DNA of 64,000 nt from an uncultured bacterium (GTDB lineage Bacteria > Patescibacteriota > Minisyncoccia > Phycocordibacterales > PALSA-1337). This document shows, one piece after another, positions 1,379-64,000 of this stretch; the stretch's first letter is position 1; each line of letters starts with the position of its first letter. Where the stretch lies: the NCBI GenBank assembly GCA_963701025.1, contig OY969557.1:368622-432621 (forward strand). Direction: 5' to 3'. A program made the translations under genes and the position numbers. Under the pieces are notes generated by a model. It did no database searches. It was not told the DNA's origin and was given only the letters and a program-made list of their open reading frames with translations.

Positions 1379-3223
1379 ATGAATCCTCATAGGTTAGCTC
1401 TAGTATCAACGCTCTACGCAATACCGATTATCATCACCGCGCTATGGATCGCCACCCCTGGACGGGCATACGCATCGTCCGACATCTCGATCTGGTGGCC
1501 GACCGACGGCGCTCACATTTCATCCGTCCAGCCTTTCAAGGCGCTCGTCGACGGCATGGCACTCTCTGACTATTCCATGTACTGGCAGGTGGACAACGGC
1601 CAGCTCAATCAGATGAGCGACAACGCGACCGACGCTCCGCACAAAGAAGCGTCCGTCGACGTCTCCGGATGGCACTGGAGCGGTAGCGGTGCATATCAGG
1701 TGAGCTTCGTCGCCAAGGACTCCGGCGGCAATACCATAGCCCAAAAACAGGAGACTATATATGTAGATCAGCCTGCGGCGAATATTCCGACCCCCTCAAG
1801 TGCACCTGCTCCGGTTGCCCCAGCACCGACGAGCATACCCGCACCGACAAACGTGCCCATCAATGCATCCGCGTCGATCTGGTGGCCGACCGACGGCGCT
1901 CACATTTCATCCGTCCAGCCTTTCAAGGCGCTCGTCGACGGCATGGCACTCTCTGACTATTCCATGTACTGGCAGGTGGACAACGGCCAGCTCAATCAGA
2001 TGAGCGACAACGCGACCGACGCTCCGCACAAAGAAGCGTCCGTCGACGTCTCCGGATGGTCATGGCATGGCGCCGGTCCGTACGCCGTCAACTTCGTGGC
2101 GAAGGACAAGAACAGCTCCGTCATCGCCTCTAAAGGCGTGAACATATACGTCGACCAGCCAGCGGCGAGCGCTCCGGTGACGGCGCCACCTGCTCAAATT
2201 TCCGCCGATCCTATTCAAGTCCAGGCCGCAACCGCACCGATCGCGCCCGTACCGACAAGCGCGCCTGTACCGACAAGCGTCCCTATCACGATCGCGACTC
2301 CCCCATCGACGGTTCCTTCCCAACCCGCAACGGCCATTTCCGGCGAGGGCGACTCGCTCTCCGGCCTCTCTTTCTACGTCGATCCGACAAGTGAAGCGGC
2401 AATCCAGGCGACAGCTTGGAGCGTCTCCGATCCGGCGGGCGCGAGCGAGATGGAAAAGATCGCCATTGAGCCAGTGGCGAAATGGTTCGGCGACTGGAAC
2501 ATCGACGTGCGCTCTGACGCGGAGAATTATGTAGACGCGGCCGTGTCGGCCGGCGAGACGCCTATTCTCATCGCCTATGACATACCCGAACGTGATTGCA
2601 ACGGATACTCCGGCGGAGGCGCTTCGAGTCCGTCCGCGTATACAGCCTGGATACAAGGCCTAGCTTCTGGTATCGGTAGCCGACGTGCGGTCGTCATTCT
2701 GGAGCCAGACGCTTTGGCTATGATGGATTGTCTGTCGCCGATCGATCAAAGCACGAGACTCGGCCTTCTTAGCTCCGCGGTCGCCACGCTCAAAGCCAAC
2801 GGCAAAAATACCGTCTATATAGACGCCGGCCACTCGGACTGGATAGGAGCTTCGGATATGGCCGCGCGCCTCTCCGCCGCCGGCGTCGCTGGAGCGGATG
2901 GATTCTCCTTGAACGTCTCCAATTTCTACACGACGGCGGACCAGATCGCCTACGGGACAGCGTTGTCGTCTCTCATCGGAGATAAGCACTTCGTCGTGGA
3001 CACTGGCAGGAACGGTCTCGGGCCGGACGGCGATCTCTGGTGTAACCCTCCAGGACGCGCCCTCGGGACCAGGCCGACGACGAATACCGGCAATCCGCTT
3101 GCTGACGCCTTTCTCTGGCTGAAGACGCCGGGCGAGTCCGACGGAGCCTGCAACGGCGGCCCGAACGCGGGCGTCTGGTGGCCGGATTACGCGCTCGGTC
3201 TCGCGGAACGGGCAGCTTACTAG
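1379..3223 (+). CDS. Secreted glycoside hydrolase family 6 (cellulase/endoglucanase). It has an N-terminal signal/TM, two tandem ~100-aa Ig/CBM-like repeats, a Pro/Thr linker and a C-terminal GH6 catalytic domain.
   Basis: The catalytic domain has the GH6 signature segments YDIPERDCN, VILEPDALA, DAGHSDW and FLWLKTPGESDG, which are collinear with Thermobifida Cel6A-type enzymes. Confidence 0.85.
   Translation: MNPHRLALVSTLYAIPIIITALWIATPGRAYASSDISIWWPTDGAHISSVQPFKALVDGMALSDYSMYWQVDNGQLNQMSDNATDAPHKEASVDVSGWHWSGSGAYQVSFVAKDSGGNTIAQKQETIYVDQPAANIPTPSSAPAPVAPAPTSIPAPTNVPINASASIWWPTDGAHISSVQPFKALVDGMALSDYSMYWQVDNGQLNQMSDNATDAPHKEASVDVSGWSWHGAGPYAVNFVAKDKNSSVIASKGVNIYVDQPAASAPVTAPPAQISADPIQVQAATAPIAPVPTSAPVPTSVPITIATPPSTVPSQPATAISGEGDSLSGLSFYVDPTSEAAIQATAWSVSDPAGASEMEKIAIEPVAKWFGDWNIDVRSDAENYVDAAVSAGETPILIAYDIPERDCNGYSGGGASSPSAYTAWIQGLASGIGSRRAVVILEPDALAMMDCLSPIDQSTRLGLLSSAVATLKANGKNTVYIDAGHSDWIGASDMAARLSAAGVAGADGFSLNVSNFYTTADQIAYGTALSSLIGDKHFVVDTGRNGLGPDGDLWCNPPGRALGTRPTTNTGNPLADAFLWLKTPGESDGACNGGPNAGVWWPDYALGLAERAAY
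1487..2059 (+). repeat. Intragenic tandem duplication: two 186-nt blocks (1487-1672 and 1874-2059) that are 100% identical, spaced 387 nt apart, inside the GH6 gene
   Basis: Direct sequence comparison. The flanking parts of the two protein repeats are diverged, so the identical core suggests recent gene conversion or a duplication/assembly collapse. Confidence 0.9.
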
Positions 3224-11320: not shown

Positions 11321-11989
11321 ATGACCATACTCATCATAGAAGACGAAAAGAAGCTCGTCGCTATATTGAAAAAGGCCCTGAAACGCGAGCGCTACGCCAC
11401 GGACGAGGCATACGACGGCGAAGCGGGACTCAAGAAGGCCCTGAAGAACAGCTACAGCCTCATCCTGCTCGACATCATGCTGCCACGGAGGAACGGCATG
11501 GAAGTCTGCTCCGAGCTGCGCCGGCGCGGCAGAGAGACTCCCGTCATCATGCTCACCGCCCGGGGCATGACCGAAGACCGCGTCCAAGGCCTCGACCTCG
11601 GCGCCGACGACTATATCGTCAAGCCGTTCGAGATGAGCGAGCTCTTCGCCCGTATGCGGGCCGTGCTCCGCCGGAGGAAGGCTCTCGAAGCGCCCGTGCG
11701 GAAGGTCGGCAACCTCGTCTTCGACGCGTCCCGGCATCAGGTCACCCGCGCCGGCAGACAGATCGCTCTCACGCCGAAGGAATATCGCCTGCTGGACACG
11801 CTCATCCGCCACGCCAATCAGGCGTTGACCAGGCGTCAGCTCCTCGATGAGGCGTGGGGACCGGATTTCAAGGAAACGAACTACGAGCTCAACGTGCATA
11901 TACGCTATTTGAGGCAGAAGATCGACCCCGCCCGGACGAAAAAGCTCATCTGTACGGTGCGCGGCGTCGGTTATGCGCTTCGAGAGTGA
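11321..11989 (+). CDS. OmpR-family response regulator (receiver plus winged-helix)
   Basis: LILLDIMLP receiver motifs and a C-terminal trans_reg_C domain. It is divergent from the kinase operon. Confidence 0.9.
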   Translation: MTILIIEDEKKLVAILKKALKRERYATDEAYDGEAGLKKALKNSYSLILLDIMLPRRNGMEVCSELRRRGRETPVIMLTARGMTEDRVQGLDLGADDYIVKPFEMSELFARMRAVLRRRKALEAPVRKVGNLVFDASRHQVTRAGRQIALTPKEYRLLDTLIRHANQALTRRQLLDEAWGPDFKETNYELNVHIRYLRQKIDPARTKKLICTVRGVGYALRE

Positions 11990-12179
11990 CGTCAGAGCAA
12001 GGCGCTCAAGCCATGAATATTTGATTTATATTAAAAGATATTAACAGGTAATTCACACCTTATCTACATTTTGGTGTGTTTTTTTGTTGACTTTACCGTT
12101 TTTAATTTTTATCATTGTTATATTAAAATAATATTAAGTTATTAATTATCAATTATTAATCTAAACTTCATATATCATC

Positions 12180-12434
12180 ATGTTAAAAAGACTACAGAGG
12201 ATCGGTTCGTCGGTGAAAGACCGCTTCAGCGGCTCTCGGAAGCTGGTCATGTGCAGGAAATGCCACTCTTTCTATTACAAGAGGAGCTGGCACTTCGAGG
12301 CGCCGGAAAGCGCCGAGAGCGAGATTGAAGAGGAGGTTCCTGTGCGCTTGACCCAATGCTCTGCCTGCGCCGAGTTCGAGGCGACGCTCAACGACCGCGA
12401 CAGCGAGCTCCTGGCATACGGATTTTCGTCATAG
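12180..12434 (+). CDS. Small zinc-ribbon protein (CxxC...CxxC), hypothetical
   Basis: 84-aa ORF after an AT-rich promoter-like region, with two CxxC pairs. Confidence 0.4.
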   Translation: MLKRLQRIGSSVKDRFSGSRKLVMCRKCHSFYYKRSWHFEAPESAESEIEEEVPVRLTQCSACAEFEATLNDRDSELLAYGFSS

Positions 12435-18737: not shown

Positions 18738-18738
18738 A

Positions 18739-18850
18739 ACCGGATCTTCATCGTTTCTTTATCCGATCTTCATCGTTTCTTTATCCGATCTTCATCGTTT
18801 CTTGAGCCTTTCTTGAGCGTTTCTTTATCTGCGCCTGATAAGCTGACCGC
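18739..18850 (+). repeat. Array of about nine phased 11-bp direct repeats (cgtttctttat / ccgatcttcat / sstttcttgag). This is copy A; copy B is at 26119-26208.
   Basis: Read directly. The 11-mers form 22-bp super-units. A similar block (~85% identity) recurs 7.4 kb away. Confidence 0.85.
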
Positions 18851-26118: not shown

Positions 26119-26208
26119 TATCCGATCTTCAGCATTTCTTTATCGAAATTTCATCGTTTCTTGAGGCTTTCTTGAGCGTTTCTTTATTTCGACCTGATAA
26201 TCTTGCCG
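26119..26208 (+). repeat. Copy B of the phased 11-bp direct-repeat array (copy A at 18739-18850)
   Basis: The sequence atccgatcttcagcatttctttatcgaaatttcatcgtttcttgaggctttcttgagcgtttctttatttcgacctgataa aligns to copy A at about 85% identity. Confidence 0.8.
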
Positions 26209-34651: not shown

Positions 34652-35098
34652 TCAATTCGTCTTAGTCGCTAACATTTTCTTGATCTCATCCCGGATTTTG
34701 ATCAACTCAATTTCGGCCATAGGCTCACGATCACCTGTTCTATAAAGCATGCTCCTTGGATCATAGCCGAGCAGTCCGGTATCCCCTTCTTTTCGACTAA
34801 TGATGTGCAGATGGAAATGTGGGATGGACTGTCCGGCTAATTTCTCCTGATTCCACACGCAATTGAATCCTTCTGCGCCATATAGCTTGCGTAATGTGGC
34901 CATAATCTTATCCGCCAATTCCAATATCGCTAAACGTTCCGCGGACGTCAGTTCACCCAATGTCTTTGCGCACTTGCGCGGGGCTATGAGGATATGCCCA
35001 AGAGTGATCGGAATGTTCGTGGGAAAGGCCCAAGCCAGGTCATTGCCGATGATCTCGCGGGCCTTGATATCTGGGTCTGAGCAGTATATGCAGGTCAT
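34652..35098 (-). CDS. HIT-family (histidine triad) nucleotide hydrolase
   Basis: HFHLHII triad. Lies in an AT-rich segment. Confidence 0.8.
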   Translation of the reverse strand: MTCIYCSDPDIKAREIIGNDLAWAFPTNIPITLGHILIAPRKCAKTLGELTSAERLAILELADKIMATLRKLYGAEGFNCVWNQEKLAGQSIPHFHLHIISRKEGDTGLLGYDPRSMLYRTGDREPMAEIELIKIRDEIKKMLATKTN

Positions 35099-35820
35099 AG
35101 ATTGTATAGGTATATCAATCTCTCAAGGCCAAATCCAAATCCTACGAATTTTTTCTCTAGGATATTTGTATTTATAATATTCTCTTTATCTACAATAAAG
35201 TTATGCTTATTGAGATTCTCCCCAAGATTGCCACATGCTGCTATCTCAACGCACTCACTTTTGTTTACAAAGAATATTTCAAATTTTGATGTCTGATGGC
35301 TATCGCTTCCTTGAGTATCATAAAATGACTCATCTATTGGATAATCTGTGACAATGAGCCAATACTTGCCTTGTAGCTTCTCTTTGTCTATTTCAGAAAA
35401 TCCCTTATGAGTCATATATTTGATTTCCGAATCGGATAGTTTGGGTAAAGCTAGACGCTCTTCTAATGATTTCAGTATTTCGATATATTTATTGATCACA
35501 TAGCTCATTGTTCCTTGCGACTGATAGATGTCAACTACGGTGAATTCGTATTGATACAAACTAGAGAGTTTCTTTTCGTCTCTAAACATGCTACCTATCC
35601 AAAAAAACTTATCGTGATTCACCCCGACCTGCCAAATGTCGGGCTCGGGATTATAGCGTAAAAAGAGATTCTCTTTAATTTTAAAACTATCGGTGTTTTC
35701 AATCTTGTAATCTATAGTCGAATACAGATGATGTTCGAAAAAATCCTGACTCTTAAGGAGGTCTCTTATAACATTTATGAACAGACTAAGCTTGTATTGT
35801 TGTTGATAACTGGGATTCAT
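35095..35820 (-). CDS. Standalone class IIb aminoacyl-tRNA-synthetase catalytic-core paralogue (AsnA/EpmA-like amino-acid ligase), no anticodon-binding domain
   Basis: Motif 2 (IGSMFRDE...YEFTVVD) and motif 3 (GFGFGLERL). Only 241 aa, in an AT-rich segment with different codon usage. Confidence 0.6.
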   Translation of the reverse strand: MNPSYQQQYKLSLFINVIRDLLKSQDFFEHHLYSTIDYKIENTDSFKIKENLFLRYNPEPDIWQVGVNHDKFFWIGSMFRDEKKLSSLYQYEFTVVDIYQSQGTMSYVINKYIEILKSLEERLALPKLSDSEIKYMTHKGFSEIDKEKLQGKYWLIVTDYPIDESFYDTQGSDSHQTSKFEIFFVNKSECVEIAACGNLGENLNKHNFIVDKENIINTNILEKKFVGFGFGLERLIYLYNL

Positions 35821-35943
35821 AGAATAATATTAACACAAACCGCTCCTTGATTTCCTAACCCCGTATATGATACTCTTTAGCGGTAGGTTTTTACCTACCG
35901 GATTTTATTCGAGGCCCGCCTCACGGCGGGTCTTTGATTTGTC

Positions 35944-39086: not shown

Positions 39087-39917
39087 CTAACGGCGGCCGC
39101 CACTAAAGGCTTGCCGCATCTGACGCAAATGATCCAGACCGCCCGCTTCCTGCTCGCGGATCTCATGACCGGTCAGCTTGATGAAGGCGTCTTCCAGATT
39201 GGCCGTGCCGGAAGCGGCGATTATGTTCGCTGGGGTATCGCTAGCGATGATCTTGCCATGATCAATGACGGCAACCTGTTGGGCGGAGCGCTCGGCTTCT
39301 TCCATGTAATGCGTGGTGAAAAAGATGGTCAAGCCCTGTTCTTCGTTGAGCTTCTTCAAGTACGTCCATATGTAGTTCCTGGTCTGCGGATCAAGGCCTG
39401 TGGTCGGCTCATCGAGAAAGAGGATGGCCGGTGTGTGCAGAAGCCCGCGGGCGATCTCCAGGCGCCGCTTCATGCCGCCGGAAAAGGTCTTGACCAGGCT
39501 GTCCTTGCGGTCCCAGAGCTCCACGAACTTCATCAAGTCTTCGATCTTCCTGGGCGTCTCCGCGCGCGGCACGCCATAGAGGCCGGCGTGGAAGAACATG
39601 TTCTCGTAGGCGGTGAGCTCGTCGTCGAGCGAAGGATCCTGGAAGACGATGCCGAACGACTGCCGCACGTCATGCGAACGCCGGACGGGATCCATGCCGT
39701 TCACGTGGATCGTGCCCGACGTCGGGTGAACCAGGGTCGTGAGCATTTTGATGGTGGTGGTCTTGCCCGCTCCGTTCGGGCCCAGGAAGGCGAAGATCGA
39801 GCCGGCGGGCACATCGAAAGATATATTATCGACAGCCTTCAAGCCGCCCTTGAACGTCTTGGTCAAGTTCTTGACGGAAATGGCTACTGTCTTTTCTGAT
39901 TGGTTCGGTTGGGGCAT
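39087..39917 (-). CDS. ABC transporter ATP-binding protein (DrrA-like)
   Basis: GPNGAGKTT, LSGGMKRRLEIARGL, LFLDEPTTGLD. Confidence 0.85.
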   Translation of the reverse strand: MPQPNQSEKTVAISVKNLTKTFKGGLKAVDNISFDVPAGSIFAFLGPNGAGKTTTIKMLTTLVHPTSGTIHVNGMDPVRRSHDVRQSFGIVFQDPSLDDELTAYENMFFHAGLYGVPRAETPRKIEDLMKFVELWDRKDSLVKTFSGGMKRRLEIARGLLHTPAILFLDEPTTGLDPQTRNYIWTYLKKLNEEQGLTIFFTTHYMEEAERSAQQVAVIDHGKIIASDTPANIIAASGTANLEDAFIKLTGHEIREQEAGGLDHLRQMRQAFSGGRR

Positions 39918-40095
39918 AGCAATAGAGACGGATGAATGGCGCTTATAATACATACTACCATTCGATGAATTGCGGTGCGAGGGTTTTTGGTGGCGTCATC
40001 CCTGAATCATATATCTTTACATTATATCGTTATTTGACTTTCGACGAGATATACTATTAAATCAACATCAAAAGACCGAAACTGGAAGGAACATT

Positions 40096-47357: not shown

Positions 47358-48365
47358 TTATAGCAGGTATGCCGATCTTAACTTCTCGATTTGGGCTTTT
47401 AGTTTATGACTATTGCCGTGACTGATCAGACCGAGATAAGACTGTACGGTCTCCGCTTTTCCGCCTTTTTCCTCGATCGTTCTAAACATCTTCCGCTTCG
47501 TTGCAGTTCGTAGCACACGATGATCCGTAAAATTGATCCATCCGAGGTAGTCGACGCCGGAGGCAATGGTGCGTATGGATATTTTCTTGGGATGTAAATG
47601 AAGGTGTAATCTGTCGTTCAAAAAAGATCGTATCTGCGGAATGAGCCCGACAAGCCAGTCCCGATCTGATGAGAAGAGAACGAAATCATCGGCGTAGCGG
47701 ATATAGTATTTTGCTTTAAGTTTGTGCTTCACGAACTGATCGAACTCATTCATGTAGATATTGACTAGGAGCTGTGAAGTGAGGTTGCCGAGAGGTAGAC
47801 CGATGCCGTCGGCAGTCGAGTGAAAGCTGCCAATGATTTCAGAGAGGAGCCAGATAATATCCTTGTCTGGAATATAATCTTTGATGATTTCAACGAGTAC
47901 TCTCTGGTCAATAGATGCGAAGAATTTCTTGATGTCGCATTTAAGCACCCAAGCAGTCTGCGTGTGATTCTGCGTCACTTTGTATGAAAAATCTCGGAAT
48001 CGGTTTACTGCTTCATGTGTCCCCTTTCCGAACCTGCATGAAAATGAATCCGCAATGAATATCTTGTCGAAAAAGATATGGAGTTCACGATAGATTGCGT
48101 GATGAAGTAGCCTGTCTCTCACGCTCGCCTTGTGGATGTTCCTCGGCTTTGGGTCGGATATATTGAACGCTTCGTATGATGAATGCTTGTAAGTCTTTGC
48201 CACAAGGTCATTATGAAGCGAAATTATATTGTCCATCAGATTTCGTTCGAATGTCTGAACGTCTTTTCTGGCCCGTTTTCCTTTCACGAACTCTTTCCAT
48301 GCCTCGATGATATTTTCGAGGGAAATGATATGATTGTAGCCATGTCCAAATTGAATCCGTCGCAT
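47358..48365 (-). CDS. DGR-type reverse transcriptase
   Basis: RT domains 1-7 with YADDFV. The DGR-diagnostic motif 4 is GIGLPLGNLTSQ (SQ instead of the group II SP). The N-terminus (FNISDPKPRNIHKASVRDRLLHHAI...SFSCRFGKGTHEAV) is typical of DGR RTs. No maturase or endonuclease domain. Confidence 0.85.
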   Translation of the reverse strand: MRRIQFGHGYNHIISLENIIEAWKEFVKGKRARKDVQTFERNLMDNIISLHNDLVAKTYKHSSYEAFNISDPKPRNIHKASVRDRLLHHAIYRELHIFFDKIFIADSFSCRFGKGTHEAVNRFRDFSYKVTQNHTQTAWVLKCDIKKFFASIDQRVLVEIIKDYIPDKDIIWLLSEIIGSFHSTADGIGLPLGNLTSQLLVNIYMNEFDQFVKHKLKAKYYIRYADDFVLFSSDRDWLVGLIPQIRSFLNDRLHLHLHPKKISIRTIASGVDYLGWINFTDHRVLRTATKRKMFRTIEEKGGKAETVQSYLGLISHGNSHKLKAQIEKLRSAYLL

Positions 48366-48378
48366 GTCAGAGAAGTCG

Positions 48379-48389
48379 CCCCCCCCCCC
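48379..48389 (+). repeat. C11/G11 homopolymer in the ~40-bp gap between the divergent avd and RT starts
   Basis: Read directly. Confidence 0.9.
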
Positions 48390-48406
48390 ACGGATTTTTA
48401 CCTGTA

Positions 48407-48760
48407 TTGAGTAAGGTGAAAGAAACATATTTGTTGTGGTATGGATATTACCAGATTTTACCCAAGGCACACAGGCATTCCCTTGGACAGAGGATTGACG
48501 GCCTTTTTATCGAAGTCATAGAGGCCATAACTGCCGCCAGTTTCTTGTCTCCCATTGAAAAACATCCGTATGTCCGGTTGGCCATCAAAAAGACCGACAC
48601 GCTCAAGGTCTTGCTCATGGTTCTGTGGGAGACCAAATCGCTTGATGACAAGAAATATATAGCCCTGTCGGTGAAGTTGGACGAGATAGGCAAGAATCTG
48701 GGCGGCTGGAACGGACAACTCACAAGACAAAACTCCCCCGTAAAAACGAGGGAGAAATGA
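48407..48760 (+). CDS. Accessory variability determinant (Avd)-like four-helix-bundle protein, encoded on the strand opposite to the RT, TR and VR
   Basis: 117 aa. LPKAHRHSLGQRIDGLFIEVIEAITAAS and a C-terminal KLDEIGKNLGGW resemble bAvd (…IAEVGRILGSWI) and the TIGR02436 family. TTG/GTG start. Confidence 0.7.
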   Translation: MSKVKETYLLWYGYYQILPKAHRHSLGQRIDGLFIEVIEAITAASFLSPIEKHPYVRLAIKKTDTLKVLLMVLWETKSLDDKKYIALSVKLDEIGKNLGGWNGQLTRQNSPVKTREK

Positions 48761-48766
48761 AGAGAG

Positions 48767-48890
48767 TTGCGGACACCGCAGCCGGATTGTTGGAGTTCCA
48801 GTCGTTGTCGAGCCAGTTGTTGCTCCAAATCCACCTGTCGCCGTTCCAGTTGAGGTAACGGACGTAGAGGTTGCCGTCAGAGTTGCGGTA
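48767..48890 (-). repeat. DGR template repeat (TR)
   Basis: 124 nt, 111/124 identical to the VR. On the minus strand it reads ...YRNSDGNLYVRYLNWNGDRWIWSNNWLDNDWNSNNPAAVSA with many AAC codons. Confidence 0.85.
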
Positions 48891-49171
48891 TCGTACGGGA
48901 CGCCTTCCGTGCCACCACCCCTTGAATGCTCTCAGGGTTGAATCGTATCCGGCATCGAAATGCCCTAGCGCCTCGTACCAAGTATGTTCATTTTTTAATG
49001 AAGTTCTGCATGCACCACTCTACCCAAAACCTTGGTCTTGCCCAAAGGGTCAATGTGCTCATTGAGATACGCTCGATGCATGGATACTGGATTCGGTAGC
49101 GAGAAACCGTGGTCGCCCGCATATTCACCTACTACCGCACTCGATTCTAGCATATTTATATAAATGACAAA

Positions 49172-49193
49172 CCCCAAGCCGAATTGCTTGGGG
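49172..49193 (-). terminator. Perfect 8-bp hairpin (ccccaagc-cgaatt-gcttgggg) between the target gene and the TR
   Basis: Read directly. On the minus strand it is followed by tttgtcattt. Confidence 0.45.
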
Positions 49194-49290
49194 TGAAGTT
49201 ATACGCATATCTTCAAGAGCGTTTGTTTTCTTATCGCAAGGACAAAGGTCAAAGTGACTGAAGCAGTCCACAGTAACCAAGTCCAGAGTG

Positions 49291-49911
49291 CTAACTTGCG
49301 GACACCGCAGCCGGATTGTTGGAGTGCCAGTCGCCGTCGAGCCAGAGGCTGCTCCAAAGACACCTGTCGCCGTGCCAGCTGAGGTAACGGACGTAGAGGT
49401 CGCCGTCAGAGCGGCGGTAAACCGTTCCCCAGAAGAAGATGTAGCGGGTGTTCCCATTGCCATCAACCTTCCAAGAATCCGGAATCAACTGCGGATGCTC
49501 ACGGAGGTAATCCAGAACATTGGCGTTCAGCACCGGTTGCTTCGACACTTCCTTGCGGAGGTCGTTGCCCTCGATGCGTCCACCTTTCTTCTGCGGCTTC
49601 GACAAGTAGAAGTCAATCTTCTTGCCGTCGAGGTAGAGGTCGGCTCCCCGGCGTTCGAGCTTGGCAACCTTGCCCTTCTGGTGTTCTTCCACCTTCCAGC
49701 CGTCAGGCAGAAAGGGGTCGGCACCGAGGTCAATTGCATACTCGACGGGCTTGATTTCATACAAGCCGAGTTTTACGCCCCTCACTTGGCCGAGGAAATC
49801 CCCGACGGTGAGCGCTTTGACTTCTTCCAATGATTGGAAACCGTTGCGGTTGAATGCGTGTTCCAGCTCTTGAGCCAGACCGACACCGAGTGTTAACCTG
49901 TTATTATCCAT
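49291..49911 (-). CDS. DGR target protein with the C-terminal variable region (C-type lectin/FGE-like fold inferred)
   Basis: The C-terminus is ...YIFFWGTVYRRSDGDLYVRYLSWHGDRCLWSSLWLDGDWHSNNPAAVSAS. The VR occupies the last ~41 codons. Start chosen at ATG 49911 (MDNNRL). Confidence 0.75.
   Translation of the reverse strand: MDNNRLTLGVGLAQELEHAFNRNGFQSLEEVKALTVGDFLGQVRGVKLGLYEIKPVEYAIDLGADPFLPDGWKVEEHQKGKVAKLERRGADLYLDGKKIDFYLSKPQKKGGRIEGNDLRKEVSKQPVLNANVLDYLREHPQLIPDSWKVDGNGNTRYIFFWGTVYRRSDGDLYVRYLSWHGDRCLWSSLWLDGDWHSNNPAAVSAS
49296..49419 (-). repeat. DGR variable repeat (VR) at the 3' end of the target gene
   Basis: 13 mismatches to the TR, 12 of them at TR adenines (coding strand): TR AAC codons become CGC, GAC, AGC, CAC, GGC and CTC. 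The 3' GC-rich segment with the tgcgg-aca-ccgca hairpin is shared (IMH-like). Confidence 0.85.
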
Positions 49912-50098
49912 AACGTGTTCTTTCTCTGTTTCGTGGACATGTCCTTTTCGAGGACTGGTCCAAGCTGTTGGGCTCAAGCTTCGTGCTTTTGCCACAGCAG
50001 AGAATGGCCTATAAATAAGCCGCTTTCTGCCGTGGCAAACGCAAGTTAGGCTATCAAGGAGCTTTACTCTGCCATTATACTACCAATTAGTACCAATG

Positions 50099-54505: not shown

Positions 54506-55762
54506 CTATTCATACCGGAGCGCCTCGATCGGGCTCTTCTTTGAAGCCTGCCTGGCCGGATAACCGCCGAAGACGAGACCGATGACCGCGGAGACGGAAA
54601 GCCCCAGGATAGCGCCCGACCACGGGAAGACGAACTGCCAGTTTATGGCCAAGAAATGCGACAGGGCGAAAGCGATGATGAAGGCGAGAGACGCGCCGAG
54701 GATGATGCCCACCAAGCCGCCGATGACCGTCAGCAGGACTGCTTCGAGGAGGAATTGGGAGAGTATGTCTTTGTCCTTTGCTCCGAGAGCCTTGCGCAGG
54801 CCGATCTCGCGGGTGCGCTCGGTCACCGAGACGAGCATGATATTCATGATGCCGACGCCGCCGACGAAGAGAGCTATGGAAGCCACGGCCACCAGGAAAT
54901 AGGTCAAGGCGCTGGTGATGGTGCCGAGGGTATTAGCCAAGCTTTGCTGGGTCTGGACGGTGAAGTCATCCTTGGTCGGATCGGTGATATTGTGGGACTC
55001 CTCGAGAGTCAGCTTGATGTCCTCTGCCGTGGCCGGAACGGCCGCGTCTGAAGACGCTTGGGTGATGATGCGGTTGTAGAATTTCTGGCCGGTGACATAG
55101 GTCATGGCGGTGGTATACGGCATGATGACCATGCCGTCGAAATCAAAGAGCGTGCCGCCGCCGGATTTCGGCAAAACAGCCTCGATCCGGAAATTATGGC
55201 CTTTGATGTTGATACTTTGATTGAGGGGATCCTGGGTGTCGAAGAGATATTTGGCCACGTCGGAGCCGATGACGATGTTGCTCGTCATGGAGTCGACGTC
55301 GCTCTGGTCGAAGAACTGCCCTTCCGCAGGTACCAGGTTGAATATGCTCGCCATGAGGTCAGTGGCCCCGAACACGGTGACCTGATAGGTATTGGAACCA
55401 TATGAAGCGGGATCGGAGCCGATGACGACGGGCATGAGAGATACAAGATCCGGCACGTTCGATTTGTTGAGGAGGGCCGTCACGTCTTTCGGTTTAAGGG
55501 AGTCGCTATAGAGAGCGGAGACATTCGATGGGCTAGTCGAGATTTGGCCAGGGATTATGGCGATGGTATTCGTGCCGAGACCTTGCACTTCGCCGAGGAT
55601 AAGATTCTGCGCGCCGGCACCGAGCGAGACCACCAACATGATGGCCGTGATGCCGATGACGATGCCGAGGATAGTCAAAAACGAACGCGAACGGTTCGTG
55701 GTCAGCCCGGTCAGAGATGTTTTGAATAAATGTCGGTAGGTCATGTTATTTCTTGAACTCAT
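54506..55762 (-). CDS. ABC transporter permease, MacB/FtsX family (second copy)
   Basis: Same architecture as 33413-34639 (TERTREIGLRKALGA). Confidence 0.85.
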   Translation of the reverse strand: MSSRNNMTYRHLFKTSLTGLTTNRSRSFLTILGIVIGITAIMLVVSLGAGAQNLILGEVQGLGTNTIAIIPGQISTSPSNVSALYSDSLKPKDVTALLNKSNVPDLVSLMPVVIGSDPASYGSNTYQVTVFGATDLMASIFNLVPAEGQFFDQSDVDSMTSNIVIGSDVAKYLFDTQDPLNQSINIKGHNFRIEAVLPKSGGGTLFDFDGMVIMPYTTAMTYVTGQKFYNRIITQASSDAAVPATAEDIKLTLEESHNITDPTKDDFTVQTQQSLANTLGTITSALTYFLVAVASIALFVGGVGIMNIMLVSVTERTREIGLRKALGAKDKDILSQFLLEAVLLTVIGGLVGIILGASLAFIIAFALSHFLAINWQFVFPWSGAILGLSVSAVIGLVFGGYPARQASKKSPIEALRYE

Positions 55763-56465
55763 CGTTGGCTGTCAGGCGATCCTTCACTTTCACATCGCTC
55801 TCTATCTCTCCGTCCATGAGACGGATGATGCGCTCTGCGTGCTCGGCCGTGGAGGTCTCATGAGTGATGAGGACGATGGTCTTGCCGTGCTCAACGTTCA
55901 GGCGCTGGATGATGCCCATGACGTTCTTTCCCGACTTGGAATCGAGGTTTCCCGTCGGCTCGTCGGCGAATATGACTTCCGGATCGGTGACGAGGGCGCG
56001 GGCTATGGCCACTCTCTGGCGTTCGCCGCCGGAAAGCTCCGCCTGCTTGTGGTCCATGCGATTGCCCAGGCCGACCGACTCGACGGCGGCGCGCGCTTTT
56101 GCATCCCATTCATGTTCTGGTATGTCCGAATAATAAAGCGGCAATTTCACGTTTTCCAATACGGTCGTGCGCGACAATAGGTTGAAAGCCTGGAAAATGA
56201 AGCCGACCTCGCGGTTTCGCAAGAGGGCCAGCTCATCACCGGAAAATGAAGTCACGTTCTTGCCGTTGAAGTGATACGAGCCTGACGTCGGCTCGTCGAG
56301 AAGCCCGAGAAGATGCAGAAGTGTCGATTTGCCCGAGCCGGAAGGACCCATGATGGCCAGGAACTCCCCTTTCCGCACGTCGAAAGTCACGCCCGCCAGA
56401 GCAACGGTCGCCTCAAGGCCGTCGTGATATGACTTCTTCAGGTTCTTGACGGAGATGATGTTCAT
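55746..56465 (-). CDS. ABC transporter ATP-binding protein (MacB type)
   Basis: [35 protein letters not shown]. The track ORF extends to 56663 through an in-frame Avd-like remnant. Confidence 0.85.
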   Translation of the reverse strand: MNIISVKNLKKSYHDGLEATVALAGVTFDVRKGEFLAIMGPSGSGKSTLLHLLGLLDEPTSGSYHFNGKNVTSFSGDELALLRNREVGFIFQAFNLLSRTTVLENVKLPLYYSDIPEHEWDAKARAAVESVGLGNRMDHKQAELSGGERQRVAIARALVTDPEVIFADEPTGNLDSKSGKNVMGIIQRLNVEHGKTIVLITHETSTAEHAERIIRLMDGEIESDVKVKDRLTANDEFKK

Positions 56466-56663
56466 TGGAAATTGAGAATTGTGATTGAAAGATTGGAGAT
56501 CATTTTTTTCTACCTTTGTGTGAGAGGACGCTCTCTTGAGCTGATCGACGAATACAAAATCACGCTTAAGTTTTTCATTCGTCTTGATAAGATCGAAAGT
56601 CTTCTTGAAGAACACGCGGGCTTCTTGCCAAACGGGAATGTCTTCAAATTTGGAATAAGCCAT
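56466..56663 (-). pseudogene. Truncated four-helix-bundle (Avd/23S-IVS-protein-like) gene remnant, in frame with the ABC ATPase, in an AT-rich ~230-bp insert
   Basis: MAYSKFEDIPVWQEARVFFKKTFDLIKTNEKLKRDFVFVDQLKRASSHTKVE matches the family N-terminal consensus (FEDLxVWQKA...QLRRAxxSI) and then diverges after about 52 aa. Confidence 0.5.
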
Positions 56664-56693
56664 GACAATTCTTTAATCCCTAATATTCAATTA

Positions 56694-58178
56694 TCAATTA
56701 CCCACATACGTCACCACCTTATCTCCAGGATTCAGGCCTGATGTTATCTCGATGGTGCCGTCGGAGCCCTTGAGGCCGGTCATGACCGGCACGGGCGAGT
56801 AGCTTTTGCCATCCGCGCTTACGAGGCGCACGGTCGTGGAAGTAGCGGTGACGGTGAGGGCGCGATATGGTATCTCGATGACACCAGCGGCCATATGGGT
56901 CAATATCTCGAGATTGGCGGTCATGCCGGAACGGATACGGGCATCAGGTGTGACGAACTGCAGAGTGACTTTATAGGTAGGCACGCCTTCGAGGACAGTC
57001 TCGGCGGGGTCTATCATGACGACCTTGGACGGAAAATCGGTATATGAGCCGTAAGCGTCGAGAGTGGTCGATGCCAAATCGCCGACGGCCACCTTGGCGA
57101 TATCGGCCTCCGGCACATAGGCCTCTATCTTGAAGCCGCTATTCTGCACCGCGAAACCACCCTGACCAGCCGAAGCGAACTCGCCGACATTCGGATCTTC
57201 CTGCGTGACGATGCCGTCGATAGGCGATGTGATGGTGTCTTCGGCGAGGACCGCCCGGGCTTGGGCGACTTTGGCCGCTTGGGCGGCGATGGACTGGTCG
57301 GAATTACCAGCGAGCTTAAGGTCATAGTTCGACTGGGCGGTTTGCAGCGCAGTCTGTGCCGATGTGACCGAGTCGATGGCGGCGTTCAGGGCGGAAAGGC
57401 CGTTATTCATGGATGTCACGTCCGCGTCTATGGCCGGCTGGGTCAGGCCTGAATTTCCCGGGTTCAAGGCATTGACGATGACGGACAGGTCGTTCATGAA
57501 ACTTTTTATCGTCGCAAGGAATCGGCTCGCGTCGGAAGCAAGGGTGCTCGGATCGCTCGAGCTCGCCGCGGCCAATTCCACGGACCACTTGTTCAGTGTA
57601 TCCGAAACGGAGACGCGCTCGTTATCGATGGCGAGTTGTGTCATAGCCGACTGGGTGCGGACGTTGATAACCGGATTGGCGCTCTGGGGATTGGTGAAGA
57701 ATATATCGGTATAATTGACCAAGGCGCCTTGGGCTTTAACATAGCCGTCATGGGCGGCATTCACTGCACTGCTCTCGGCGCTGGCCAAGGCTGTCTGCTG
57801 GACCGATAGCTCCTCCGGCGTAAGCGAGCGTGACATATCGGCGAGCGTCGCCTGGGCGGAGGCCAAGGCGGCCGCGTCCTGGGCGCTGTCGAGCGAGGCG
57901 ACAGGTTGGCCGGCATTGACGGCATCGCCTACCTTGACATAGACACGCGATATGACGCCGCTCTTCTCGAAAGCAAGATCGGCTTTGTCGACCGGCGATA
58001 CCGAGCCGGTGACGGACACTTGCTCTATGACATTGCCAACAGTAGCCGCTGTAGAAGTGAAATTCGACGGCTTATTGGCGTTCTTGTAGATGGAGTAGAT
58101 GATTATAGCCGCGATGATGACGATGACAGCTATGACCCATTTATTTTTTAGAAAGCGAAAAATAGAGCGTTTTTTCAT
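56694..58178 (-). CDS. HlyD/MacA-family periplasmic adaptor subunit
   Basis: N-terminal TM, coiled-coil region, beta-barrel domains. Heads the operon. Confidence 0.8.
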   Translation of the reverse strand: MKKRSIFRFLKNKWVIAVIVIIAAIIIYSIYKNANKPSNFTSTAATVGNVIEQVSVTGSVSPVDKADLAFEKSGVISRVYVKVGDAVNAGQPVASLDSAQDAAALASAQATLADMSRSLTPEELSVQQTALASAESSAVNAAHDGYVKAQGALVNYTDIFFTNPQSANPVINVRTQSAMTQLAIDNERVSVSDTLNKWSVELAAASSSDPSTLASDASRFLATIKSFMNDLSVIVNALNPGNSGLTQPAIDADVTSMNNGLSALNAAIDSVTSAQTALQTAQSNYDLKLAGNSDQSIAAQAAKVAQARAVLAEDTITSPIDGIVTQEDPNVGEFASAGQGGFAVQNSGFKIEAYVPEADIAKVAVGDLASTTLDAYGSYTDFPSKVVMIDPAETVLEGVPTYKVTLQFVTPDARIRSGMTANLEILTHMAAGVIEIPYRALTVTATSTTVRLVSADGKSYSPVPVMTGLKGSDGTIEITSGLNPGDKVVTYVGN

Positions 58179-63066: not shown

Positions 63067-63549
63067 TGCCGCGACGGCATTGACTGGGCCATGACGGGGA
63101 TGAGCTCCAGCAGAAAAACGGCTCAAAATCAGAGTTTAGGTTCGAGTCCAAGACTCGTTCAGAGGAGGGAGTCTTGGACGTAGACGTGAAGCAAACCTAA
63201 AAGATGTTGAGATTGCTCAATATTTTACGAGAAAAAGGTTCGATTGGTATATCTACCAACTGGCTGACGTTTTTGATTAATGTTCGGACTTTTTTCGCCG
63301 CGAATCCGGAAGGGTGATGCGACTGGTTGCGCCGTCGCTCCGCTCGGCGCTCGGTTCGGACTGTCGCGACAGGGATTTCGGGGAGGAAGGTGTCGCGCCC
63401 GTCCGCCTGTTTTTTCGGGCGGGGGCGGGTCGTAGACGTAATCGGGTCAAATGGTGGAAATGACCCGATTAGGTCATACCATCTGACCCGATTATTCTAA
63501 CGCAGTGGCATGTAAATGACATCTCGGCCAGCTCCGGAACGCTTCGTCT

Positions 63550-63987
63550 TTAAGCAATAGAGAATTTATTTCTGACAGAAGTGATAGGAAAATATTTTCC
63601 TAAAAATTGACTTAATCGAGCAAATTCTGCATCAGCACCTTGTTGAAGTTTTAGGGATACAGTTTTTCTAACTAGAGTAACCTTCTTTCCGTTATAAGTT
63701 AAGTAGAATTTGTTCTTACCAAAAGTAATTTTATTTTTTAGATCACTAAGTGATACTTTTAGAAAAACGTATTTTTCGTAATCATGGGATATAATTTTGT
63801 CGTCTGAATTGACCCACGACAATCTACAAGTTTTGTAGTATTTGATTCTGCGTGCATCCCTAACAGTATAAAATGTTATAAGTCCTAGCCCTGTGAAAAG
63901 TGAAAGAAATGAAATGAAATGTTCCTTAACATTATTGAGTTTAGCTTCTGGCATTTTGATTAAATATAAGTATTCGTTATCAATCAT
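63550..63987 (-). CDS. Hypothetical membrane-anchored protein in an AT-rich terminal segment (possibly bacterial PH-domain-like)
   Basis: 145-aa ORF. Local GC is far below the window average. Confidence 0.4.
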   Translation of the reverse strand: MIDNEYLYLIKMPEAKLNNVKEHFISFLSLFTGLGLITFYTVRDARRIKYYKTCRLSWVNSDDKIISHDYEKYVFLKVSLSDLKNKITFGKNKFYLTYNGKKVTLVRKTVSLKLQQGADAEFARLSQFLGKYFPITSVRNKFSIA

Positions 63988-64000
63988 TACATCAAAAAAC

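Follow-up and report, generated by a model that had tools for sequence, protein, structure and literature searches.

A four-helix-bundle gene cassette, probably an internally deleted pseudogene relic, reads in frame into a MacB-type ABC ATPase in a Patescibacteria efflux operon

We analysed a 64,000-nt stretch of DNA (contig OY969557.1; the window) from an uncultured member of the Patescibacteria, and focus on a short AT-rich segment that separates the first two genes of an efflux operon. All operon genes lie on the minus strand. The first gene (56694–58178) encodes a HlyD-family periplasmic adaptor (Pfam HlyD_D23, E-value 1.9e-15; HlyD_3, 1.4e-13) and ends with a TGA at 56696–56694. The second (55746–56465) encodes a MacB/LolD-type ABC ATPase (Pfam ABC_tran, 7.8e-35; LolD/MacB-like in NCBIfam) with the canonical start MNIIS (MNIISVKNL) and its ATG at 56465–56463. 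The third (54506–55762) encodes a MacB-type permease (Pfam MacB_PCD, 2.7e-38; FtsX, 1.6e-21), and its start overlaps the ATPase stop by 17 nt. The frame of the ATPase is open upstream of its ATG, giving a read-through open reading frame (ORF) of 305 codons (55746–56663) that is made of a 47-aa bundle fragment, a 19-aa frameshifted linker and the ATPase. The ABC_tran domain starts at residue 90 of this ORF, and the LolD/MacB-type models of NCBIfam start at residues 67–70.

The 66 codons upstream of the ATPase ATG, which we refer to as the leader (MAYSKFEDIPVWQEARVFFKKTFDLIKTNEKLKRDFVFVDQLKRASSHTKVEKNDLQSFNHNSQFP), run in frame into the ATPase with no stop, as the original prediction for this locus had stated. 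Three-frame translation finds only the ATPase-phase frame open across the segment, the other two being closed. The gap between the HlyD stop and the ATPase ATG (56466–56693) is 228 nt long and has a G+C fraction (GC) of 0.368, compared with 0.571 for the HlyD gene and 0.564 for the ATPase gene, in good agreement with the AT-rich segment of about 230 bp described earlier. Its GC falls in the lowest 1.7% of all 228-nt windows across the 64 kb.

The first 47 codons of the leader (56523–56663; ATG at 56663–56661) are homologous to helix 1 and the start of helix 2 of the TIGR02436/PF05635 four-helix-bundle family, the protein family of 23S rRNA intervening sequences (IVSs). The Pfam profile PF05635 aligns its positions 1–40 of 106 to leader residues 7–47 (E-value 8e-5, 23.3 bits); it falls short of the gathering score (33.8) because only 40 of the 106 positions exist, 60% of the domain being missing. 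The NCBIfam profile TIGR02436 gives an E-value of 2e-3; both profile matches are sub-threshold yet specific, and fall in the N-terminal 35–40 positions of the models. A word-indexed search with a 65-aa leader query returned no match, and the homologues emerged by exhaustive search: phmmer against 1.84 billion representative proteins gave 21 matches with E-values of 1e-3 or less (best 2.1e-9), every one of which aligns its own N-terminus to leader residues 1 to about 48. Profile comparison is stronger still, with hhalign of the leader against a profile of 33 full-length relatives reaching a probability of 99.3% (E-value 2e-20) over residues 1–47 only, and hmmsearch with the subfamily profile reaching 1.9e-17. 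In the hhalign alignment the family-invariant residues E7, W12, D35 and Q41 are all kept.

Beyond residue 47 the relatives read ...RASYSIMLNIAEGFERGSNKEF... and the window reads ...RASSHTKVEKNDLQSFNHNSQFP, and this divergence places the end of the homology at residue 47. The proposal that the leader is a truncated N-terminal piece of the four-helix-bundle family thus stands, and only its endpoint, given as about 52 aa, has to be moved to residue 47. A complete four-helix domain of about 110–127 aa is not present, as the NIAEGF...KGSAGE core motifs are absent in all three frames. Since the central NIAEGF motif and helices 3–4 are gone, no bundle can form, and judged by its sequence the leader is a pseudogene fragment, not a functional member of the PF05635/TIGR02436 family. 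We considered and rejected C-terminal bundle homology in the tail HTKVEKNDLQSFNHNSQFP: hhalign aligns nothing past residue 47, and the DNA of the tail instead matches a stop relic and a repeat arm, described next. Neither single-sequence phmmer nor the family hidden Markov model found another four-helix-bundle copy in the window, and ten small window ORFs scanned in Pfam contain no Avd or four-helix-bundle gene.

The segment is bounded by a pair of inverted repeats. The 5′ arm (GGTAATTGATAATTGAATATTAGGGATTAAAGAATTG; 56666–56702, minus strand) precedes the leader ATG, and the last codon and stop of HlyD (AAT TGA; 56699–56694) lie within its first AATTGA repeat. The 3′ arm (TCTCCAATCTTTCAATCACAATTCTCAATTTCCAA; 56465–56499, minus strand) abuts the ATPase ATG and is translated as ...DLQSFNHNSQFP; the sequence directly before this ATG, TCTCCAATCTTTCAATCACAATTCTCAATTTCC, is complementary to GGTAATTGATAATTGAATATTAGGGATTAAAGAATTG. 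The two arms give a local-alignment inverted-repeat score of 25 (z 3.5; 2 of 300 shuffles as good) and pair with each other in both the minimum-free-energy and the centroid RNA structures.

From arm to arm, the remnant is collinear with an intact element in another locus (L098). Four matches occur in the same order: the 5′ arm, the N-terminal coding region, a relic of the last codons with the old stop (AAAAAATGA; 56500–56508, TGA at 56502–56500, minus strand; 9 of 9 nt identical to the gene end in L098), and the 3′ arm (85% identity over 34 nt). Read in the frame of the relic stop, the tail is ...SHKGRKK*, which is basic like the ...PSYKK* C-terminus of the intact L098 protein. The homology ends at residue 47–48 and the next L098 match begins at 56508, so the deletion junction lies at approximately 56509–56522, with the junction sequence GCGTCCTCTCACACAAAGGTAG. 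The leader ATG and the relic stop are 164 nt apart, compared with 381–384 nt in intact genes, and therefore about 217–220 nt (1 mod 3) are missing. A deletion of this length puts the old TGA out of frame, and the ORF extends across the 3′ arm to join the ATPase. The bundle gene had been described as truncated after about 52 aa; what we find is an internal deletion and not a 3′ truncation, with the old stop and the 3′ arm still present. The alternative offered in the same description, an IVS-derived segment, fits, as both inverted-repeat arms are kept in the architecture of an ORF-bearing 23S rRNA IVS (PMC4990558).

A 12-mer, GATTGAAAGATT, is a signature of the arms. It occurs in 12 of 171 fetched loci, all of them four-helix-bundle loci, mostly within about 80 nt of the gene, and is oriented forward upstream of the gene and reverse downstream of it. 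In the window it lies at 56483–56494 in the downstream orientation, as expected. Rfam families are absent from the segment, and Rfam finds no rRNA in the window.

Comparison with orthologous operons identifies the segment as an insertion at the hlyD–ATPase junction. The 120 closest ATPases, named Paceibacterota or Patescibacteria, are 77–92% identical to the window ATPase, are 231–247 aa long, and cover only the ATPase part of the query; MNIIS or MNIIE is their commonest N-terminus. None of them carries the extension, their N-termini reaching at most 8 residues beyond MNII. In the closest operons for which DNA is available, the hlyD–ATPase sites are empty, with spacers of 38 nt (L169) and 32 nt (L171); their ATPases are 90–92% identical to that of the window. 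The window HlyD adaptor is 69–76% identical to the adaptors of L169, L170 and L171, and its C-terminus, TYVGN* in the window and TYVTGQ* or TYVK* in the relatives, differs exactly at the 5′ arm. In about 20 more distant Patescibacteria operons the gap ranges from −4 to 111 nt, mostly 12 nt or less, and none of these junctions has a leader-like sequence. By eye, no target-site duplication is convincing at the segment borders.

The same junction carries a different insert in L170, a syntenic relative whose ATPase is 92% identical to that of the window. There, a low-GC insert (L170:1624–2734) contains a 310-aa ORF (GC 0.40 vs 0.51) with no Pfam or NCBIfam match; between this ORF and the ATPase ATG lie 163 nt of AT-rich spacer that include a TATACT box. 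From these two sequences, the hlyD–ATPase junction looks like a recurrent insertion site that has been invaded more than once.

The closest full-length relatives of the leader make up a family of about 520 proteins of 126–127 aa. Entries from Patescibacteria, Parcubacteria and Magasanikbacteria give them the name four helix bundle protein, and the match to TIGR02436 runs end to end (1.5e-30 and 2.1e-31). Their genes sit co-directionally within operons, for example between genes for a NUDIX protein and an epimerase (L081), between ABC2_membrane and ABC_tran genes (L084), and between Wzy_C and epimerase genes (L085). In these three loci the gene has a GC of 0.24–0.35 compared with 0.37–0.50 for the flanks, and both short spacers are filled by inverted repeats of 34–38 nt that are 71–94% complementary.

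Our survey covered 79 loci that carry full-length relatives, of which a metagenome scan supplied 76. For each we compared the 60 nt upstream of the start with the 60 nt downstream of the stop and scored their best complementarity, with 213 neighbouring ORFs as controls. The inverted-repeat z-score exceeds 3 in 54% of the loci and 5 in 40%, compared with 4% and 2% of the controls. Median arm length is 29 nt; the upstream arm stops about 11 nt short of the ATG, and the downstream arm starts about 10 nt past the stop codon. Upstream neighbours share the strand of the gene in 55 of 58 loci and downstream neighbours do so in 43 of 53, with median gaps of 61 nt, and gene GC is below flank GC in nearly all surveyed loci. 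Four-helix-bundle genes of the rRNA-IVS family in Patescibacteria are thus typically low in GC, flanked by inverted repeats, co-directional and located inside operons. We found no description of such cassettes in protein-coding operons in the accessible literature, the coverage of which is incomplete, so an earlier description is possible.

Several loci show these cassettes in other states. Decayed copies with stops or frameshifts are present in L093, L108 and L125. In L102, an arm hairpin without an ORF (AAGATTGAAAGATT / AATCATTCAATCTT; L102:488–534; fold z −4.5) occupies the spacer before rpsR, and an intact four-helix-bundle cassette with different arms (L102:852–1214) directly follows rpsR. 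Two same-strand four-helix-bundle genes lie within a few kb of each other in L108, L115, L127, L140, L145 and L156; these are multiple cassettes in one gene neighbourhood. Two database proteins, P0004 and P0011, begin with a truncated bundle N-terminus (56–60 aa) that continues in frame into unrelated sequence. By eye, the tail of P0004 looks like a sigma-70-type factor in its C-terminal region, and that of P0011 like a portion of a polysaccharide deacetylase. Chimeric ORFs of the window type recur.

We conclude, with a probability of roughly three in four, that the segment represents a small cassette, of a kind common in Patescibacteria, that has undergone an internal deletion and persists as a pseudogene relic. 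Intact, the cassette would have been a low-GC four-helix-bundle gene, about 125 codons long, between two inverted-repeat arms of about 30 nt, placed co-directionally in a short spacer between operon genes. In the window it would have replaced a spacer of about 35 nt between the genes of the HlyD-like adaptor and the ABC ATPase. A later deletion of about 217–220 nt would then have removed codons ~48–120, leaving the 5′ arm, codons 1–47, the end of the gene (a few codons and the old TGA) and the 3′ arm. With the resulting frameshift the old TGA would be skipped and the ORF carried via the 3′ arm into the ATPase in frame. We infer this order, insertion followed by deletion. An in-frame join is expected for one frame out of three and calls for no selective explanation; the fusion was probably an accident and not a selected feature. 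The foreign GC of 0.37 and the intact conserved residues in codons 1–47 point to a recent event.

Several observations weigh against this conclusion. No relative has an intact cassette at this junction, so the inserted copy may already have been truncated. None of the collections searched contains the window genome or the exact sequences of the fusion protein, the ATPase and the adaptor. L098 is matched over short lengths (9–34 nt), with a best database-wide E-value of 6.6e-4. The window arms are degraded, with a duplex free energy of −17.8 kcal/mol (as good in 5.5% of shuffles), and the RNA fold of the whole segment is not significantly more stable than shuffles (z −1.4). Furthermore, across the family, arm mismatches compatible with G-U pairing number 18 for the sense strand and 30 for the antisense strand, with no sense-strand excess, and the arms may act as DNA-level repeats and not as a sense-strand RNA stem.

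The insertion also bears on how the ATPase is translated. Only 15% of 47 gene starts in the window have Shine-Dalgarno pairing of −4 kcal/mol or better. Many genes, including HlyD, instead have a TATAAT-like box, often TGnTATAAT, 6–8 nt before the ATG, as at the gene starts at 58178, 58821, 23832, 43393, 44020 and 50650, and the two features together suggest that leaderless mRNAs are widespread in this genome. Internal cistrons, the ATPase and the permease among them, normally abut or overlap the preceding gene, which implies translational coupling. The insertion put 228 nt between the HlyD stop and the ATPase ATG; 30 nt separate that stop from the leader ATG. Shine-Dalgarno pairing is −4.6 kcal/mol at the leader ATG and +2.8 kcal/mol (no pairing) at the ATPase ATG. 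Ribosomes that end at the HlyD stop may reinitiate at the leader ATG, giving a 305-aa protein. Most likely, the ATPase is at least partly made in this predicted 305-aa form, with a 47-aa helical fragment and a 19-aa nonsense linker at its N-terminus; initiation at the ATPase ATG (56465) may also occur. Marker peptides of the predicted fusion are AYSKFEDIPVWQEAR and NDLQSFNHNSQFPMNIISVK. The intact cassettes themselves, by analogy with rRNA IVSs, may be cut from transcripts by RNase III.

An alternative is that the segment is a non-autonomous deletion derivative, similar to a miniature inverted-repeat transposable element, which was itself mobile, was inserted already truncated, and could be moved by whatever moves the intact cassettes. 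Both arms survive in the window, arm-only hairpins exist elsewhere, such as the one before rpsR in L102, and many family members lie on very short contigs, as repeated sequences do. Against it, we found no second copy of this derivative in the window or in 172 fetched loci. The borders show no evident target-site duplication, and even for the intact cassettes, mobility is something we infer. We consider this origin unlikely.

The 66 residues could also serve the ATPase as a functional N-terminal extension specific to this lineage, such as a regulatory or docking helix taken over from a bundle protein; we regard this as quite unlikely. The open, in-phase frame, the intact family-conserved residues in positions 1–47, and a leader ATG that lies 30 nt after the HlyD stop and pairs better than the ATPase ATG all speak for such an extension. 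Against it, none of the 120 closest orthologs (0/120) has more than 8 extra N-terminal residues, and no fusion to an ATPase occurs among the exhaustive-search matches, which are 40–173 aa long. The bundle part of the leader amounts to less than half of a four-helix bundle, the other 19 residues come from a frameshifted tail and a repeat arm, and the GC of 0.37 is still foreign, which makes the event recent.

The original prediction raised a further possibility, that the segment is a relic of a second diversity-generating retroelement (DGR), namely a decayed avd accessory gene whose RT (reverse transcriptase), TR (template repeat) and VR (variable repeat) have been lost. PF05635 has been reported to resemble Avd (PMC10053308), and the window does hold a genuine DGR (47358–49995, minus strand). 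Its RT (47358–48470; RVT_1, 2e-23) is accompanied by a TR of 124 nt (48767–48890) and by a VR (49296–49419) at the 3′ end of the ORF 49291–49995; TR and VR are 90% identical, with differences almost all at TR adenines, and this is a bona fide DGR. However, no Avd is detected in the ORFs beside the RT or in the VR–TR spacer of this resident DGR, and its target gene ends at 49995, at least 6.5 kb from the remnant, with unrelated genes between. No RT, TR or VR remnant flanks the segment, which is wedged between two operon genes with its arms touching both, leaving no room for these components and showing no similarity to them. A DGR-type RT is found within 3 kb in none of the 79 loci with full-length relatives (0/79). 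The family profile matches the IVS-type structures 2GSC (1.7e-18) and 2RLD (2.3e-9) and no Avd-named chain at an E-value of 1 or less. Among 2.9 million viral contigs there is one weak match only, and a phage source is therefore not indicated. The second-DGR origin is thus already largely refuted, and we consider it very improbable.

An assembly artefact, with the deletion or even the entire junction produced by wrong joining in a metagenome-assembled genome, is also very improbable: the source genome and exact proteins are not on record in the collections searched, multi-copy cassettes do break assemblies and many relatives lie on contigs of about 1 kb, but both flanks are the expected syntenic operon genes in the order and orientation of L169–L171, a real element lines up collinearly with the segment, and comparable decayed copies are present in independent assemblies.

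The internally deleted cassette invites comparison with known four-helix-bundle elements. ORF-bearing 23S rRNA IVSs occur in Leptospira, Coxiella burnetii, Xanthomonas and Brucella, and encode the S23p (23S_rRNA_IVP) four-helix-bundle protein. The cassettes carry the same protein family (PF05635/TIGR02436) in the loop and fall in the same size class, about 430–460 nt when intact. Terminal inverted repeats enclose the ORF in both: the Coxiella IVS has a 28-bp stem, heptamer repeats before a decaying ORF, and is excised by RNase III (PMC4990558), and the cassette arms have a similar length. The window remnant retains this feature (z 3.5), though the energy of its duplex is marginal. Short tandem repeats are found in the arms of both, GACAGAT heptamers in Coxiella and AAAGATT/AATTGA-type repeats in the cassettes. 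Foreign base composition, an ORF prone to decay (PMC4990558) and ORF-less hairpin derivatives are shared as well.

There are also differences. ORF-bearing IVSs lie in 23S or 16S rRNA helices, helix 25 or 45 in the case of 23S rRNA, whereas the cassettes occupy spacers of protein-coding operons, and the remnant lies between protein-coding genes. These operons encode an efflux pump in the window, and polysaccharide and ribosomal-protein functions in the relatives. The wobble-pair comparison of the arms gives no sign of sense-strand RNA constraint, and excision by RNase III is putative here. Furthermore, the window copy is internally deleted and fused to the downstream gene. Insertions in 16S and 23S rRNA genes of the candidate phyla radiation contain ORFs with the 23S_rRNA_IVP domain (PMC11270868); they share the phylum-level host group and the domain with the cassettes, which lie between protein-coding genes instead. 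The structures matched by the family profile are those of Xanthomonas XCC0516 (2GSC) and a Bacteroides protein (2RLD), whereas the window keeps residues 1–47 only. Avd of Bordetella phage BPP-1 (PDB 4DWL) has a distantly related four-helix-bundle fold, but it differs from the family described here in genomic setting, in its association with RT, TR and VR, and in the absence of any match of our profile to an Avd-named chain at an E-value of 1 or less.

The locus is an ordinary pseudogene relic and an annotation trap, and the class of cassettes in protein-coding operons is a by-product with a wider bearing. The annotation here should read as a 239-aa ATPase preceded by a four-helix-bundle pseudogene, not as a 305-aa protein with a novel N-terminal domain, and the fragment should not be counted as evidence of a second DGR. 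More tentatively, and with the odds somewhat against it, the relic may represent a stage in the decay of mobile IVS-like cassettes, an undescribed class that would colonise tiny operon spacers in Patescibacteria. The 23S rRNA IVSs would then be the special case in which such a cassette lands in rRNA. The cassettes would be tolerated since their arms allow removal from, or bypass in, the transcript, and would decay to arm-only hairpins and, occasionally, gene fusions. If the cassettes are mobile, pairs of filled and empty sites offer a test of where rRNA intervening sequences come from, and in streamlined genomes the cassettes would repeatedly give rise to remodelled operons, RNA-processing sites and chimeric ORFs.

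Some other features of the window are worth recording. Stretches as AT-rich as the insert (GC of 0.37 or less in 228-nt windows) occur only at 11916–12311, 35047–35924, which spans the ORF 35095–35820, and 63481–64000, and could represent foreign or intergenic DNA. The window also holds a second ABC ATPase paralog at 39087–39953 (minus strand), and its 5′ coding region forms a 48-nt direct repeat (71%) with 56410–56457. A direct repeat of 234 nt (1487–1720 and 1874–2107; 92% identical) lies within the ORF 1379–3223 (614 aa) and is probably a duplicated protein domain. Finally, an intergenic sequence of about 90 nt occurs twice, at 18738–18849 and 26119–26208, 7.4 kb apart; the two copies are 84% identical and have an 11-nt tandem periodicity inside (TTTCTTTATCCGATCTTCATCG...).

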